The translations under genes and the position numbers were made by a program. The notes below the pieces were generated by a model. That model made no database searches. It was not told the origin of the DNA and worked only from the letters and a program-made list of their open reading frames with translations. Positions 3,370-55,720 of a DNA stretch of 64,000 nucleotides are shown one piece after another. The DNA is taken from the NCBI GenBank assembly GCA_965215885.1, contig CBDCEW010000101.1:115569-179568 (forward strand), written 5' to 3'. Source of the DNA: Candidatus Moanibacter sp. GTDB lineage: Bacteria; Verrucomicrobiota; Verrucomicrobiia; Opitutales; UBA2987. Position 1 is the first letter of the stretch; each line of letters opens with the position of its first letter.

Positions 3370-3560
3370 GATCTCTCCGTCGTAATCATAATCGTAATCT
3401 AAATTCGAAAGAAGAAAGCTCGACGGGAGATCACGATTTAGAGTCACGATGGGAAGAGGGGAGCCGATTGGATCTTTCGTCGTGAATCGTAATCGTGATC
3501 TAAAATCGAAAGAGGACAAGATCGACTTGAGATCACGATTTAGAGTCACGACGGAAGAGG
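3370..3560. repeat. Structured intergenic array with 6-bp periodicity, about 100-bp unit present twice
   Basis: tcgtaatcataatcgtaatctaaattcgaaa...gatcacgatttagagtcacgat is followed by tcgtgaatcgtaatcgtgatctaaaatcgaaa...gatcacgatttagagtcacgac. A homologous copy lies at about 55511-55640. Confidence 0.85.
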
Positions 3561-7410: not shown

Positions 7411-7498
7411 CTTTGTCGTAAGCTTCGTCGTCAACTTTGTCGCTAGCTTTGTCGCGGAATTCGGTCACTTTCTTGAGGAAGCTTTCGATGAAGTTTGG
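7411..7498. repeat. Orphan 12-bp-period array of the family that flanks the four-helix-bundle gene
   Basis: tcgtaagcttcg-tcgtcaactttg-tcgctagctttg-tcgc, followed by a degenerate inverted arm (gaggaagctttcgatgaagtttg). Confidence 0.8.
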
Positions 7499-10881: not shown

Positions 10882-13473
10882 ATGACCGGTAACCTTCACA
10901 ACAGCTGGCCGGTTCTGAAGTCCTACGATCAGGAGCATCTTGATCGCATTGCGATGCCGATCGGAGGGATCGGAACCGGGACGATAAGCCTGGGCGGGCG
11001 GGGCGACTTGCGTGACTGGGAGATCATGAACCGTCCGGCGAAGGGATTTATTCCGTGTTGGCCGTTGAGTCACGGGAACCGGGCGCGGATTGGGCCTTTC
11101 TTCGCCCTCTATGCGAAGCCAAGCACCGGCGATGCGGTTGCACGGTTGCTCGAAGGCCCGTTGCCGATTGAGGCCTACGAGGGCCAGATGGGCGCGACAG
11201 GTCCCAACCACGGCCTGCCGCGGTTTCGGAATTGCCGGTTTTCGGCGGCCTATCCTCTCGCCCAGGTATCCCTGGACGATCCGGCTGTTCCCCTTGTTGC
11301 GAGGATGGAAGCGTTTAATCCGATGGTCCCGGGCGATGCCGAGGCGAGTGGTTTACCGGTCGCGGTCCTCCGTATTGTCCTGACCAACAAGACGAAGCTT
11401 CCGGTTCAGACCTCAGTTTGCGGATCGCTCCCGAACTTTATCGGTTTTGAGTCTGGTAGTGAGATGGAAGAAGCTCCGGGAAAGGAGCGCCGCGTACGTT
11501 TTCGTGTCGGTAAATCGGTCCGTGGTCTTTTCTACGATGCCCCGGGTGTGGAGGGCAGAAGAGAATCCTTGGGCACGATGGCGTTGGCGACGACGGCACG
11601 AATCGGCATTTCGCACCGCACTTCTTGGATCGAAGCGCACTGGAGCCGGGCATCACTTGATTTTTGGGATGATTTCAGCACTGACGGCAAACTCGAGCCA
11701 CGTAAGGGGTCCGGCCAGACGGAGCCGATGGGATCTCTCGGGGTCTCTCTCCGCGTGCCACCGGGAGCGGCGCGTGCCGTGACGTTTTTGATCACCTGGC
11801 ATTTTCCCAATCGATTCGCGTGGGCGCCGCAGACCGAGAAACCCTGCTGCGGCGATTCGGGCTCCCGAGGCCGCGGCACGGTTGAAGAGGCCGGGGAGGG
11901 AAACTGGTATTGCACCCGCTACAAGGACGCCTGGAACGCCGCGGCTGAGATCGCACCCCGTTTGCCGCAGCTGGAACGGGCCACGGTAGCGTTTGTGAAA
12001 GCCTTTTGTAGCTCTGATTTGCCTGAACCGGTGAAAGAGGCCGCCCTTTTCAACACTTCGACGCTCCGCACGGAGACCTGCTTTCGCACACGTGAAGGAC
12101 ATTTCCTGGCGTGGGAAGGTTGCCGGGACGAAGAGGGTTGCTGCCATGGCTCTTGCACGCACGTTTGGAATTATGAGCACGCGACGGCGCATCTATTCGG
12201 CGACTTGAGCCGGTCCATGCGCGAAACCGAGTTTCTGCACGCTACTGACGAAGAGGGCAAGATGGCTTTCCGGGTCGACTTGCCTCTGCCGGAGCGCCAG
12301 ACCGAAGGGCCCGCCGCGGCGGATGGACAGATGGGCTGTTTGCTCAAACTCTACCGGGACTGGCAACTGTCCGGGGACGACGAATTTCTGCGCGCCCTCT
12401 GGCCGCATGCGCGCCGGGCGCTCGAGTTCTGCTGGGTCAAAGGGGGATGGGATGCCGATCGCGACGGCGTCATGGAAGGCTGCCAGCACAACACCATGGA
12501 CGTGGAGTACTTCGGGCCGAATCCGCAGATGACGGGATGGTACCTGGGCGCTTTGCGGGCGGCTGAGGAAATGGCCTGCTTCCTCGGCGAAGACGCGTTC
12601 GCCGACACCTGCCGATCTCTCTTTGAACGCGGAAGCGAGTGGATGGATGAGTATCTCTTCAACGGTGACTACTACGAGCACCAGGTGCGGGTGCTGCGGC
12701 GATGGAGCGACGTCCACCCCGCACTGCGGCTGAATATGGGTTCGAGTAAGCTGAAGAATCCCGATCTTCAACTCGGCCCGGGTTGCCTCGTCGATCAGCT
12801 GGTGGGACAATACACCGCACACCTTTGCGGCCTCGGCTACCTGCACGAAAAAGCAAAGGTGAGGAAAACCCTTCGCAGCGTTCTGCGCTTCAACCGGTGC
12901 ACGAATTTTGGCTCACATTTTAACAACATGCGCAGCTACGTGCTCGGCGTTGAGACGGGGTTGCTGATGGCGGCTTATCCCCCAGGGAAACGTCCCAGGT
13001 TTCCGTTTCCCTACTTTTCCGAGGTGATGACCGGGTTCGAATATACCGCAGCGGTCGGCATGATCTACGAAGGACTGAAGGGGCTCGGACTCAAGGTGAT
13101 CGGAGACATCAGGGACCGCTATGACGGGAGAAAACGCAATCCGTTCGACGAGGCGGAGTGCGGTCACCACTACGGCCGGGCCATGGCTTCGTGGTCGGCT
13201 GTCCTCGCATTTACCGGTTTCCACTACAGCGCCGTTCAGGGAACGATGACCTTCGCGCCATCGGAGAAACCTGTCACCTGGTTCTGGTCGAACGGGTACG
13301 CCTGGGGAACCTTCTCCCAAGAAAAGAAGCGCGGGGGCGTCGCCGTGGAATTACTGGTGCTTTACGGAAGGCTGGAACTGGCGAGATTAGCGCTCACCGG
13401 CATCGGTCAGATCGAATTTCCGAGGCGCCGGGTATTCCGCAAAGGACGAGGCTTGAAATGTGTCATTTCGTGA
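10882..13473 (+). CDS. GH116 glycosidase (non-lysosomal glucosylceramidase-like)
   Basis: MPIGGIGTG, GSCTHVWNY, AADGQMG, QHNTMDVE, GCLVDQLVGQ, EVMTGFEY, ECGHHYGRAM. Confidence 0.9.
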   Translation: MTGNLHNSWPVLKSYDQEHLDRIAMPIGGIGTGTISLGGRGDLRDWEIMNRPAKGFIPCWPLSHGNRARIGPFFALYAKPSTGDAVARLLEGPLPIEAYEGQMGATGPNHGLPRFRNCRFSAAYPLAQVSLDDPAVPLVARMEAFNPMVPGDAEASGLPVAVLRIVLTNKTKLPVQTSVCGSLPNFIGFESGSEMEEAPGKERRVRFRVGKSVRGLFYDAPGVEGRRESLGTMALATTARIGISHRTSWIEAHWSRASLDFWDDFSTDGKLEPRKGSGQTEPMGSLGVSLRVPPGAARAVTFLITWHFPNRFAWAPQTEKPCCGDSGSRGRGTVEEAGEGNWYCTRYKDAWNAAAEIAPRLPQLERATVAFVKAFCSSDLPEPVKEAALFNTSTLRTETCFRTREGHFLAWEGCRDEEGCCHGSCTHVWNYEHATAHLFGDLSRSMRETEFLHATDEEGKMAFRVDLPLPERQTEGPAAADGQMGCLLKLYRDWQLSGDDEFLRALWPHARRALEFCWVKGGWDADRDGVMEGCQHNTMDVEYFGPNPQMTGWYLGALRAAEEMACFLGEDAFADTCRSLFERGSEWMDEYLFNGDYYEHQVRVLRRWSDVHPALRLNMGSSKLKNPDLQLGPGCLVDQLVGQYTAHLCGLGYLHEKAKVRKTLRSVLRFNRCTNFGSHFNNMRSYVLGVETGLLMAAYPPGKRPRFPFPYFSEVMTGFEYTAAVGMIYEGLKGLGLKVIGDIRDRYDGRKRNPFDEAECGHHYGRAMASWSAVLAFTGFHYSAVQGTMTFAPSEKPVTWFWSNGYAWGTFSQEKKRGGVAVELLVLYGRLELARLALTGIGQIEFPRRRVFRKGRGLKCVIS

Positions 13474-13630: not shown

Positions 13631-13800
13631 TCGAAACTTGATCGTAAGCTTCGTCGTAAGCTTACTCGAAAGATCAACCTGAAACGTCGACGGACTTGAC
13701 CCTCCCTGCCGAAACTTAATCGTAAGCCTCGTCGTAAGCTTTGTCGAGAGATCGGGCGAAAACATCGACGAAGTTGACGATTAAGCTTGCGAGGAAATTT
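13631..13800. repeat. Upstream 12-bp-period inverted-arm array
   Basis: Arms 13631-13669 and 13710-13747 (units like tcgtaagcttcg) are each followed after 17 nt by an inverted arm (13687-13700, truncated; 13765-13800). Confidence 0.9.
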
Positions 13801-13865
13801 CCCTGGGGGGAGGAACCTCCTTCTGCTCGCCATCGCCCAATACTCCGTCCTAATCTTCCCGACCA

Positions 13866-14630
13866 GTGAGCGCTACCTTCAATCACGAGAAACTGCTTGT
13901 CTATCAGAAGACGTTGGCATTCTATGGAATAGCAGACACTTTGGTGCAAGATTGGGATTCCAAACGTGCAATCACCGATCATCTCCCAAGAGCAGCACAG
14001 AGCAGCGTTGAAAACCTTGCAAACGCGAGTTCTGCAATCTCTAAGGGATCGAAGTTAAAATCGCTCGACTACAGCTTGGGGTCTACACTCGAGTGCGCAG
14101 CCTGTCTCGACATCGCCGAAGTAAAGCGACTTCTCAACGGAGAAATTGTGGCGCAATACAAAGCGAATCTCGCAGAAATTGTCAGAATGACGATGGGCCT
14201 TCAAGATTCCTGGTCCCAACACATACTACGAGAAGATGGAGTCACGTATGGCGGGGATACAACCTCACGACCGCAGCGGTCGGGGTTTCACCACGAGGAA
14301 CTCGACGTCTACATAGTTGCTCTTGAAGTGATTCGATGGTTCTGCGAATCGGAGTTATCGGCGGGACTCTCGGTCCGCTTATTGCGCAAATTGGATGCGT
14401 TCGCCACCAGCATCGTGCTGAATATAGCGGAAGGTAACGGTCGTTACTCAGAAAGGGATAAGCGAAGTTTTCTCCAGACTGCTCACCAGTCAACGGTCAA
14501 ACTGGCGACTCAGCTGGATCTTTGTATCCTAAAGGGGCTGCTATGTTCAAAGGATGCCGACGTCGGAAAGAACCTGATTGTCAGAGTTGCGAGTATGACC
14601 GCAGCCATGATCAGGAGTAAACGAACCTAA
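13866..14630 (+). CDS. Tandem double four-helix-bundle protein (23S rRNA IVS protein/Avd-like family)
   Basis: Two homologous halves: FNHEKLLVYQK...RAAQSSVENLANA...GSTLECAACLD and FHHEELDVYIV...ATSIVLNIAEGNGR...QSTVKLATQLD, joined by an LREDGVTY linker. Confidence 0.88.
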   Translation: MSATFNHEKLLVYQKTLAFYGIADTLVQDWDSKRAITDHLPRAAQSSVENLANASSAISKGSKLKSLDYSLGSTLECAACLDIAEVKRLLNGEIVAQYKANLAEIVRMTMGLQDSWSQHILREDGVTYGGDTTSRPQRSGFHHEELDVYIVALEVIRWFCESELSAGLSVRLLRKLDAFATSIVLNIAEGNGRYSERDKRSFLQTAHQSTVKLATQLDLCILKGLLCSKDADVGKNLIVRVASMTAAMIRSKRT

Positions 14631-14652
14631 TAGAGAATTGACGGAAAACCGC

Positions 14653-14855
14653 GTCGAAGCTTACGACGAAGGTGCCCTGACGGGGGTAGTAGGGCTCCCT
14701 ATCAAAACTTAATCGTAAGCTGCGTCGTAAGCTTAGTCGAAGACCCAGCCGGAAACATCGATGAAGTTGACGATCAAGCTTACGACGAAGATGCCCAGCC
14801 GGGCGGAAGAGGATCCTCCAAACCTAATCGTAATCTTCGTCGCAAGCTTAGTCGA
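14653..14855. repeat. Downstream 12-bp-period inverted-arm array
   Basis: Alternating arms at 14653-14672 (inverted), 14704-14740, 14758-14792 (inverted, after a 17-nt spacer) and 14819-14855. Confidence 0.9.
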
Positions 14856-14950: not shown

Positions 14951-15790
14951 ATGAACCGATTATCACCGGAAGAAATCACCTTTTTTAAACGCGAGGGCTA
15001 CCTGATCAAAAAGGGTGTTCTTGACCCGGATCTGATGGCGCGAGCCCGGGAACGAAAATGGGTGGGCGCACCTGATCGCATGAAGCGGGATGATCCCTCC
15101 ACCTGGTTTGGGCCGTGGAGCACCGAGGAAGAAACCAGCGAAGCGGAGGCTGACTGTAAGCTGGGATACACTTGGAAATATCGCGAACCGGCTGAGGAGG
15201 AATGGCTTGTCCGCATGATGGCGGCAAATCCCGTAATTGTCGGCTGGGTCGAGCAGCTCCTCGGTGAGGGGACTTTCGACGTGAAGGAACGTGTTCGCGG
15301 CATCTATTGCCGTCTACCGATGGGAGATGCACCGGAAAAGCCTCTCGTCTGCCACTGCGATGTTGGACCCGACCGACTGCACGAGACGCTGTTCACGCAA
15401 CTCCTAAACCCCGGCGTCGGCGCCGTGGGACTGATCGCGCCCATCCCACCGAACGGAGGAGCTTTCACCGTCTGGCCGGGAACGCACAGGATAATCTATG
15501 ACCTCATGATAAACACGGAAGGCCTTGCACGGAACGAGGCCTATAAGCAAAGGATTATCGACTTTAACGACGATTATCACGTGGAGGGCTGCGGCGAAGC
15601 GGGCGACGTTCTATTATGGCATCGCCTTCTGGCCCACGCCGCCGGGTGGAACCGATCCGAGGTACTGCAGTTGCGCGAAGCTGTTCTCTGTGATTACCCG
15701 CACCGTGAGAATCCCGACGCGGAAGCGAAGTCCTCTTACGAAGACATGTGGGAGGCATGGTCGGGGGAGGTGCGGAGGGCTGCTGTTTGA
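14951..15790 (+). CDS. PhyH-family Fe(II)/2OG dioxygenase
   Basis: FFKREGYLI, CHCD (HxD), GGAFTVWPGTH, AGDVLLWHRLLAH. Confidence 0.88.
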   Translation: MNRLSPEEITFFKREGYLIKKGVLDPDLMARARERKWVGAPDRMKRDDPSTWFGPWSTEEETSEAEADCKLGYTWKYREPAEEEWLVRMMAANPVIVGWVEQLLGEGTFDVKERVRGIYCRLPMGDAPEKPLVCHCDVGPDRLHETLFTQLLNPGVGAVGLIAPIPPNGGAFTVWPGTHRIIYDLMINTEGLARNEAYKQRIIDFNDDYHVEGCGEAGDVLLWHRLLAHAAGWNRSEVLQLREAVLCDYPHRENPDAEAKSSYEDMWEAWSGEVRRAAV

Positions 15791-55504: not shown

Positions 55505-55720
55505 GAAGATCGACAGAAGATCACGATTGAGAGACACGATGGAGAGGGAGATCCAGTTCGATCTTCCGTCGTGAATCATAATCGTGATCAAAAATCGAAA
55601 TGGTCGACCTTCGATTACGATTATGATTACGATTATTGATTGGGCTGGCGAGAACCTACAATCTAACTGCGTAATCTAATATCGAAACGACGAAGTTGAC
55701 GTCGAAGCTTACGACAAAGT
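55505..55720. repeat. 6-bp-period array followed by one 12-bp-family arm
   Basis: 55511-55600 is homologous to 3421-3512; gattacgattatgattacgattat; cgacgaagttgacgtcgaagcttacgacaaagt at 55688-55720. Confidence 0.85.

Follow-up and report, generated by a model that had tools for sequence, protein, structure and literature searches.

What kind of element places a gene for a four-helix-bundle protein, amid short inverted repeats, between two unrelated catabolic genes? The question is raised by a 64,000-nt stretch of contig CBDCEW010000101.1 from Candidatus Moanibacter sp. (the window), in which a gene for a double-domain protein of the PF05635 family stands among arrays of a 12-nt unit. An earlier note, made from the sequence of this DNA, had proposed that gene and arrays form a self-contained and possibly mobile unit. 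The reading that we favor, with about even confidence in it as a whole, is that the locus is a single-gene cassette of the 23S rRNA intervening-sequence type located outside rRNA, that it was likely inserted whole, and that its protein likely binds the repeat units of its own arms. Below, G000 is the genome of this window (6.36 Mb) and C-labels are its contigs; the window lies on C101.

The gene encodes two tandem four-helix bundles

PF05635 matches the open reading frame (ORF) in two stretches (E 1.1e-24), and TIGR02436 matches it as well. When each half of the 254-residue protein was searched separately, a check advised in the earlier note, both halves scored above both curated cut-offs: 44.6 and 46.7 bits for PF05635 (cut-off 33.8), and 41.7 and 43.8 bits for TIGR02436 (cut-off 24). 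The two halves are 27% identical to each other. An AlphaFold2 model built with 39 aligned relatives (predicted local distance difference test, pLDDT, 89.8; predicted template-modeling score, pTM, 0.87) contains two four-helix bundles joined by a disordered linker. The best solved structures are 2gsc (template-modeling (TM) score 0.88 on the target, root-mean-square deviation 1.8 Å) and 2rld (TM score 0.87), both of the S23p family; the Foldseek E value is only 2e-3, and 2gsc_A is also matched by sequence (E 5.5e-4). Profile scores and the up-down arrangement of the helices both place the protein in the PF05635/TIGR02436 four-helix-bundle family, and the model agrees with the two tandem domains that had been proposed.

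The two bundles are not equivalent. In the 39-relative alignment, bundle 2 retains the family motif LNIAEGNGR, and bundle 1 has a conserved GSxLECAACLD in that place. Xcc0516, a PF05635 relative, forms a ring oligomer, a homopentamer, as cited in excerpts of PMC4990558.

Periodic inverted arms flank the gene throughout its family

Relatives were drawn from two sources. A genome collection with one genome per species provided the best 80 of 239 relative-encoding stretches, which are 32–50% identical over both bundles and come mostly from metagenome-assembled genomes (MAGs) of Verrucomicrobiota, Kiritimatiellia and Lentisphaerota, with a few planctomycete and other MAGs. The second, independent set comprises 80 metagenome loci scored at the same thresholds; its organisms may overlap the first set. 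The relatives in both sets are not independent samples, and all of the evidence presented here is comparative.

In a typical member, a forward arm of two or three 12-nt units is followed, after 10–30 nt, by an ORF that begins with ATG; 10–40 nt beyond the stop codon stands the exact reverse complement of the forward arm. Inverted arms scoring at least 17 between the 200-nt flanks are present at 60 of 74 loci of the genome collection. A first pass at a score of at least 15 had found them at 51 of 74 loci, compared with 0 of 55 flank pairs displaced by 700 nt. For the metagenome set, the count is 56 of 68 loci versus 15 of 68 mismatched pairs. The flanks are also tandemly periodic (a 20-nt stretch with at least 17 of 20 matches): 85 of 153 flanks in the first set, 54 of them at lag 12, compared with 2 of 134 controls, none at lag 12; and 84 of 148 flanks in the metagenome set, 77 of them at lag 12, compared with 0 of 160 gene-internal pieces. 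The periodic inverted arrays that the earlier note suggested seeking beside homologous genes are thus found well above the displaced and mismatched controls.

The two arms of a cassette are always inverted, as none of 26 typed loci has them in the same direction. Their polarity toward the gene is 13 versus 13 in the first set and, when the two sets are combined and filtered more strictly, 42 versus 14; it changes about 5 times on a FastTree tree built from 56 proteins, compared with 11–14 times in ten shuffles, a descriptive comparison only. Taken across these relatives, gene and arms very probably form one unit.

The arms can also enter the coding sequence. At 8 of 116 loci (control, 1 of 180), the reading frame passes through a reverse arm at the midpoint of the gene, which thereby encodes the interdomain linker, for example AVDKARDKARDK; the arm beyond the stop codon is in frame with this linker arm. 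The double gene thus looks like bundle 1 between a forward and a reverse arm, followed by bundle 2 and another reverse arm. From this order we infer that it arose as a tandem of ‘bundle plus reverse arm’ in which the first stop codon was lost.

Two other arrangements were seen among the relatives. The cassette ORF of locus L058 (2980–3891, 303 residues, genome G069) does not stop at the downstream arms but reads on to a point 2 nt short of the start codon of a permease gene, so that the arms are coding there. At L150 (G041:C2) and downstream of L051, double genes or their surroundings are flanked by complete local hairpins of another 12-nt unit, which is GACGCnTACGGC-like.

The repeat unit has a conserved core, and its length differs between single and double genes

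We compared 44 distinct unit consensuses from 67 loci. They align as nGAyNAAGnnnn, with G2, A3, A6 and G8 conserved at about 97%, and contain 11.3 bits of information, compared with 4.4 ± 0.2 bits for random 12-mers given the same treatment. The phased motif GAnnA[AG]G (at least two copies, 11–14 nt apart) occurs in 92 of 153 flanks versus 1 of 134 controls in the first set, and in 116 of 148 flanks versus 1 of 160 controls in the metagenome set. The eight variable positions of the unit are cassette-specific: they agree at 6.85 of 8 between the arms of one cassette and at 3.92 of 8 between cassettes, and the median arm score is 28 within a cassette and 7 between cassettes. Four cassettes in a single MAG have four different arm types (L061, L072, L083 and L093).

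The length of the unit was compared in four genomes that each contain one double gene and several single-domain PF05635 genes, of which 17 were analyzed. Inverted arms are present at 14 of the 17 single-domain genes. Of their 22 periodic flanks, 13 have lag 7 and 5 have a multiple of 7, and lag 12 does not occur; the double genes of the same four genomes have a best lag of 12 or 13. Lag 7 is absent from all double-gene flanks in both sets. These patterns point to a putative reading of the repeat by the cassette protein, a proposal that we consider evenly balanced between right and wrong.

The cassette is probably inserted or mobile

Two loci can be compared with relatives in which the cassette is absent. 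In genome G041, the cassette lies between rsmA and mutS; these genes abut or overlap in three relatives (MutS 59–70% identical), and no palindrome is present there. In genome G069, about 990 nt with the cassette separate a binding-protein gene from a permease gene; in three relatives these two genes are about 20–65 nt apart. A different insert of about 850 nt occupies the rsmA-mutS junction at L131 (G050): it contains a 201-residue frame (ArsR-like by eye) and is bracketed by two copies of a perfect 30-nt palindrome.

No partner gene recurs beside the cassettes, as the most frequent neighbor family is present at only 5 of 80 loci. Where the neighbors are co-directional, the gene runs with them at 28 loci and against them at 12, by crude, raw ORF calls. 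The plasmid and phage collections contain no relative at E 1e-8. With enriched arms in the relatives, two empty sites and no recurrent partner, the proposal of a self-contained, possibly mobile unit has held up, and we consider it likely that the cassette is inserted or mobile.

For the window cassette itself, no orthologous GH116-PhyH junction was found in 21 relatives (best PhyH 50% identical), and the metagenome contigs contained no exact match to a 24-mer taken from the end of the GH116 gene. Two DNA runs from different studies contain a joint from 13691 to 14657, with 13 other letters between, which would fit a gene-less form of the locus. The joint was placed at 90% likeness, the right-hand piece has 7 mismatches, and no second G000 locus accounts for it; it is a lead only.

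The arrays belong to a dispersed family in this lineage

The arrays are not special to this locus but are part of a dispersed, genome-wide family, a point that the earlier note had overlooked. A profile built from two units finds 225 matches in the 6.36-Mb genome, which merge into 89 loci totaling 13.7 kb. The other arrays of G000 have the same two loop types and arms of two to four 12-nt units. Across 41 related genomes, the 15-mer motif of the unit has 306 matches in G000, 199 in G006 and 0–5 in each of the other 39, compared with 0–4 for reversed-pattern controls.

PF05635 is present at 12 loci of G000, plus one fragment. All five copies or fragments of the gene subfamily (on C101, C72, C56 and C96, and the G006 gene) lie 50–260 nt from arrays. 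The other nine PF05635 loci of G000 have no array of the 12-nt family within 1.4 kb; other PF05635 genes of the genome do have arms of their own. Several of the copies are damaged. The C72 remnant, next to a DDE transposase gene, has lost its 5′ end, and the C96 remnant retains only residues 1–72. On C56, the stretch corresponding to 13905–14291 is lost and the join lies inside the HExLxVY motif common to both bundles; the double gene is thereby reduced to one bundle. Viewed as a gene (G000:C56:4091–4441, loci L010 and L022), exactly one bundle is missing, a single-domain gene results, and the start codon is altered too.

The sole orthologue among the 41 related genomes, in G006, is 79% identical. 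It lies in a different neighborhood, adjoining a molybdopterin-oxidoreductase-like ORF (named by eye), with arrays at both ends, and its 3′ end holds an IS630-type element (DDE_3 plus HTH). Every copy has a leader of about 55 nt and ends in a short trailer; the copies cease to be homologous inside the arrays.

Gene-less arm hairpins are found beside cassettes in several genomes. An unbiased look at the ORFs adjoining the arrays returned mostly abundant catabolic families, one transposase family at four loci, and the four-helix-bundle gene. By eye, the 17-nt loop of the G000 arrays resembles the trailer of the gene and the leader of simple cassettes, a resemblance that fits the gene-less units being cassettes that have lost their ORF. 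In genome G043, the unit occurs only at the cassette, with all six matches within about 900 nt.

Other repeats and genes were noted in the same genomes. The arrays on C40, C86, C63 and C78 of G000 are interrupted at the same relative place in their arms by a TCCCGCTGAGCGGGATCG-like stretch of about 24 nt. Several contigs of G041 (L151–L157) carry loopless, perfect CTTTGTCGCGAG-unit palindromes centered in a conserved repeat of about 200 nt, at about 25–30 sites. G000 also contains nine near-identical genes for a 152-residue IS200/IS605-type TnpA (on C2, C27, C37, C57, C74, C103, C69, C101:45651–46013 and C104) and about 15 longer proteins (about 190–440 residues) with a partial Y1_Tnp domain; one of the Y1 genes is 609 nt from an array and no other is linked.

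Organization of the locus and its surroundings

The features of the window are listed in Table 1. Arms of about three 12-mers in alternating orientation had been claimed for both flanks, and they were found at those places. A second loop of about 32 nt separates each reverse arm from the next forward arm; forward and reverse arms thus alternate along an array, with loop 1 after each forward arm and loop 2 after each reverse arm. The three spacers described earlier are exactly 17 nt long and end in AAACG, AAACA and AAACA, respectively. Their length was correctly described, but their middles do not vary freely, as both the 17-nt loop and the loop 2 of about 32 nt recur in other arrays. Likewise, arrays do stand on both flanks, but no single pair of arms encloses the gene, which is instead flanked by local hairpins; the arm closest to the gene is of the reverse type on both sides.

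Table 1. Positions of the gene, hairpins and unit copies within the 64,000-nt window
Feature	Positions	Strand	Details
Gene-less array	7411–7455	+	3.8 copies of the 12-nt unit found at the cassette; flanked by GH4 and PhyH genes
Hairpin unit 1	13637–13702	+	Forward arm 13637–13669 (three 12-nt units), 17-nt loop 13670–13686, truncated reverse arm 13687–13702
Hairpin unit 2	13715–13796	+	Forward arm 13715–13747, 17-nt loop 13748–13764, reverse arm 13765–13796
Second-loop-like stretch, then leader	13797–13865	+	Second-loop-like stretch 13797–13828; leader of about 40 nt, conserved in all paralogues and the G006 orthologue, by alignment
Double-bundle gene	13866–14630	+	GTG start, 254 residues; PF05635/TIGR02436 bundles at about residues 5–117 and 142–251, disordered linker 121–138
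Trailer and short reverse arm	14631–14671	+	Trailer 14631–14651 (like the 17-nt loop of gene-less units, by eye), short reverse arm 14652–14671
Downstream array	14672–14855	+	Loop 2 14672–14707, forward arm 14708–14740, 17-nt loop 14741–14757, reverse arm 14758–14790, loop 2 14791–14822, forward arm 14823–14855
Single further copy of the 12-nt unit motif	55700–55714	-	

The 15-nt motif TCGTAAGCTTNGTCG, allowing at most two mismatches, has 16 matches in the window, compared with 0.39 expected and a maximum of 2 in 100 shuffles; 12 of the 16 fall in 13642–14854. Outside the locus, three more copies of the unit were counted in the window. Tandem Repeats Finder reports a period of 12 at 14708–14739 and 14759–14785. 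Hairpin unit 2 folds as RNA with -32.4 kcal/mol (z -2.96) and has a z of -1.3 as DNA; the RNA folds of the downstream array have z scores of -2.7 to -4.8. Over the local hairpins of the window, z ranges from -2.4 to -4.8 as RNA and from -1.3 to -3.7 as DNA, which does not discriminate between the two forms. Neither promoter nor terminator hits are more frequent than in shuffles.

The two catabolic genes next to the cassette, which had been called unrelated, are a GH116 gene (10882–13473) and the PhyH gene (14951–15790). Other neighbors that were scanned encode glycosidases, sulfatases and oxidoreductases. The claim that no transposase, reverse transcriptase or rRNA lies nearby also proved sound: the closest transposase ORF is at 81–1250, the two RVT_1 genes of G000 are on contigs C92 and C37, and an Rfam search of the whole 64-kb window returned no family at threshold, hence no rRNA, and nothing above chance in the locus itself.

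Two further repeats were observed in the window. At 3370–3560, a 101-nt unit is present 1.9 times, with arms of TCGTAA/CGTAAT hexamers; this hairpin repeat is related to the 12-nt arrays but is not one of them. At 55612–55641, near the single 12-nt unit at 55700, the hexamer CGATTA occurs in runs (periods 6 and 12).

A proposed mechanism and its alternatives

The preferred reading can be drawn as follows. Each arm would be a series of protein-sized sites whose core is conserved and whose flanks are specific to the cassette. One protein would sit on each of the periodic units, which would serve to maintain or spread the element. The arms may pair with each other, either in single-stranded DNA or in the transcript of a host operon, and the resulting stem would loop out the gene. 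By analogy with rRNA intervening sequences, such a stem might be cut by RNase III; we hold this RNA step to be doubtful. G000 carries one RNase III gene, and the simple cassette L051 is predicted, as RNA, to enclose its ORF with a run of about 35 uninterrupted arm-arm pairs (z -8.1, 20 shuffles). RNA-library contigs of X9 cover 14109–14293 and 14417–14643 at low depth, which does not demonstrate transcription or processing. The gene-less hairpin arrays would derive from cassettes by deletion of the ORF; they would be moved in trans, and would persist and multiply as the arrays seen at the 89 loci.

A number of observations weigh against this reading. The core motif was picked after viewing the first set, although it was replicated in the second, and the change of period from single to double genes is one evolutionary event. 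The period of 12 could reflect coding rather than a protein footprint, given the reverse arm that serves as an in-frame linker at the 8 of 116 loci. Both empty sites are at deep divergence (flanking proteins 52–70% identical), and inspection by eye of the two filled sites revealed no clear target-site duplication. Mismatches between the arms, taken on the sense strand, show no G:U excess (116 versus 96, p 0.19) and include 229 transversions beside 2608 Watson-Crick pairs, and thus contain nothing specific to RNA pairing. In the window, the local hairpins would out-compete a long-range stem, and both gene-nearest arms are of the reverse type. The gene-less arrays are not biased relative to the orientation of the neighboring gene (24 same, 18 opposite). 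Finally, G041 contains 79 matches of a perfect palindrome of 12-nt units, which is part of a longer repeat (about 200 nt) and has arms unlike those of the two double genes in that genome. Because of these palindromes, and because the G006 orthologue is cut by the IS630-type element amid abundant arrays, the spread of bare arms may not need the cognate protein.

We weighed four alternatives. The strongest, although still unlikely, is an intervening sequence that acts purely at the RNA level: the arms pair, RNase III cuts, the host operon is insulated, and the protein ignores the arms, whose periodicity is a by-product of slippage or coding. It has a precedent in 23S rRNA (excerpts of PMC4990558) and draws on the predicted 35-bp stem of L051, on the co-orientation with neighbors (28 versus 12) and the insertion within operon junctions, and on the arms that serve as in-frame linkers, with most lags divisible by 3. 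However, pairing does not need an nGAyNAAG core that is conserved over 44 distinct units, nor does it require a period that stays fixed, at 12 or, for single-domain genes, at 7, while the sequence turns over. The missing G:U excess, the 12 loci that are antisense to both neighbors and the gene-less arrays without strand bias also speak against it. Alternatively, the gene could home into pre-existing palindromic repeats, in which case the arms would be the target and lie outside the moving unit. Gene-less palindromes of the same units are indeed common in G000, G006, G041 and G042, and by eye the window gene takes the place of a forward arm within an array. The two empty sites, however, have no palindrome, as the genes abut or overlap there; in G043 the unit occurs only at the cassette; and arms are cassette-specific even inside one genome, with four types in one MAG. 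We consider homing improbable.

A comparably small chance is given to a resident regulatory module, in which the arms are operator arrays that control the gene itself or its neighbors. The position of the arms, 10–30 nt ahead of the start codon on one side and immediately behind the stop on the other, would suit such a role, as would periodic units with a conserved core, whereas the context differs at every locus without a recurrent neighbor, filled and empty sites exist, and there are multiple truncated paralogues and gene-less copies at 89 loci. The remaining alternative is largely refuted, and we regard it as the least probable of all: that the arrays are an independent family, like repetitive extragenic palindromic (REP) sequences or bacterial interspersed mosaic elements (BIMEs), that is spread by a tyrosine transposase, and that the gene is carried along by chance. 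The arrays recall BIMEs in their alternating orientation and their two types of linker, and the genome has 29 Y1_Tnp matches; yet of 27 Y1_Tnp loci just one has an array within 1 kb, and on these numbers a link to REP-associated tyrosine transposases (RAYTs) was rejected. Moreover, arms flank distant homologues in other bacterial classes, and every copy of the subfamily is array-linked, compared with 0 of 9 other PF05635 loci.

Taking the preferred reading, a cassette whose protein binds its own arm units, one step further leads to a tentative generalization. PF05635 proteins may be sequence-specific readers of short tandem repeats, and the build of the protein may set the length of the unit, 7 nt for one bundle or 12 nt for a fused pair; protein and inverted arms together would be a minimal, transposase-free mobile element that settles in rRNA or in operon junctions, and loss of the gene would seed hairpin-repeat families such as the approximately 90 arrays here. 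We hold it less firmly than the reading of the cassette itself.

Comparison with known systems

According to excerpts of PMC4990558, knowledge of 23S intervening sequences and S23p proteins dates from about 1990, with neither a function nor a means of moving assigned to them, and PF05635 genes between cas genes, for example cmr3 and cmr2, have been read as functional parts of the cas operon (excerpts of PMC3936711). In this study, the family travels with cassette-specific periodic inverted arms, sits in operon junctions and leaves gene-less hairpin arrays. This gives the PF05635 protein a concrete, testable candidate partner, namely its own repeat units, and gives a class of unexplained intergenic repeats in bacteria of the PVC (Planctomycetes-Verrucomicrobia-Chlamydiae) type a likely origin. 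It is also a reason for treating PF05635 genes inside operons as insertions, and the contrast between 7-nt and 12-nt units is a sharp prediction on binding. A full-text literature search found no paper that ties the PF05635 family to periodic inverted arms outside rRNA.

The closest known system is the 23S rRNA intervening sequence. In Coxiella burnetii, the helix-45 element has a 28-bp stem of terminal inverted repeats that is cut by RNase III, and a variable number of tandem GACAGAT heptamers lies upstream of the S23p ORF; the element has been termed selfish, and a mobile origin in which the ORF acts in mobility was proposed long ago (stated or cited in excerpts of PMC4990558). The earlier note had thus overlooked that the ORF-bearing 23S intervening sequence already has inverted terminal repeats and short tandem repeats. 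PF05635 genes are also found in insertions of 16S and 23S rRNA genes of Candidate Phyla Radiation (CPR) bacteria, and intervening sequences also exist in ORF-less forms (excerpts of bioRxiv 10.1101/2024.02.27.582315). As far as these excerpts go, the likeness to the elements of Coxiella, and of Leptospira as cited in PMC4990558, extends to terminal inverted repeats that could pair into a long stem around a PF05635 ORF, tandem copies of a short repeat in the arm beside the start codon, weak start signals, a long-suspected selfish nature and ORF-less forms. A PF05635 ORF between stem-forming inverted repeats is what we found in the relatives (60 of 74 and 56 of 68 loci, with about 35 bp in L051); in the window, this takes the form of flanking hairpin arrays. 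The window element is different in that it lies between protein-coding genes, GH116 and PhyH, rather than at helix 25 or helix 45 of a 23S rRNA gene, and the window has no Rfam match. It also has a fused double domain, 12-nt nGAyNAAG units, multi-unit arrays and about 90 gene-less loci.

The single-domain PF05635 cassettes, the 17 genes with 7-nt arms, share the architecture and the protein family. In contrast to them, the cassette described here has a fused double domain and a 12-nt unit, its arm serves as linker in some members, and its gene-less arrays have expanded in the lineage.

Avd of diversity-generating retroelements is a basic, nucleic-acid-binding protein of a related four-helix-bundle family. 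Unlike such a retroelement, the window cassette has no adjacent reverse transcriptase and no template/variable repeat pair nearby, and no neighbor recurs in the 80 loci.

The arrays can also be compared with REP sequences, BIMEs and REPINs (REP doublets forming hairpins). BIMEs have alternating repeat orientation and two linker types. Dispersed intergenic hairpins in alternating orientation, with two alternating linker types and at tens of loci, are common to both. The arms here, however, are tandem 12-nt units rather than one 20–40-nt palindrome, no Y1 transposase is linked, and the only consistently linked gene is the four-helix-bundle gene.

By the usual features of insertion sequences and miniature inverted-repeat transposable elements (MITEs), the cassette has inverted arms, no clear duplication at the two filled sites (by eye) and no linked transposase. 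The ends of Mu and Tn7 contain several transposase-binding sites. The cassette resembles them in having repeated protein-sized sites, inverted, at both ends of an inserted segment; it differs in that it has no transposase domain, no target duplication was seen, and the whole element is only about 0.9 kb.

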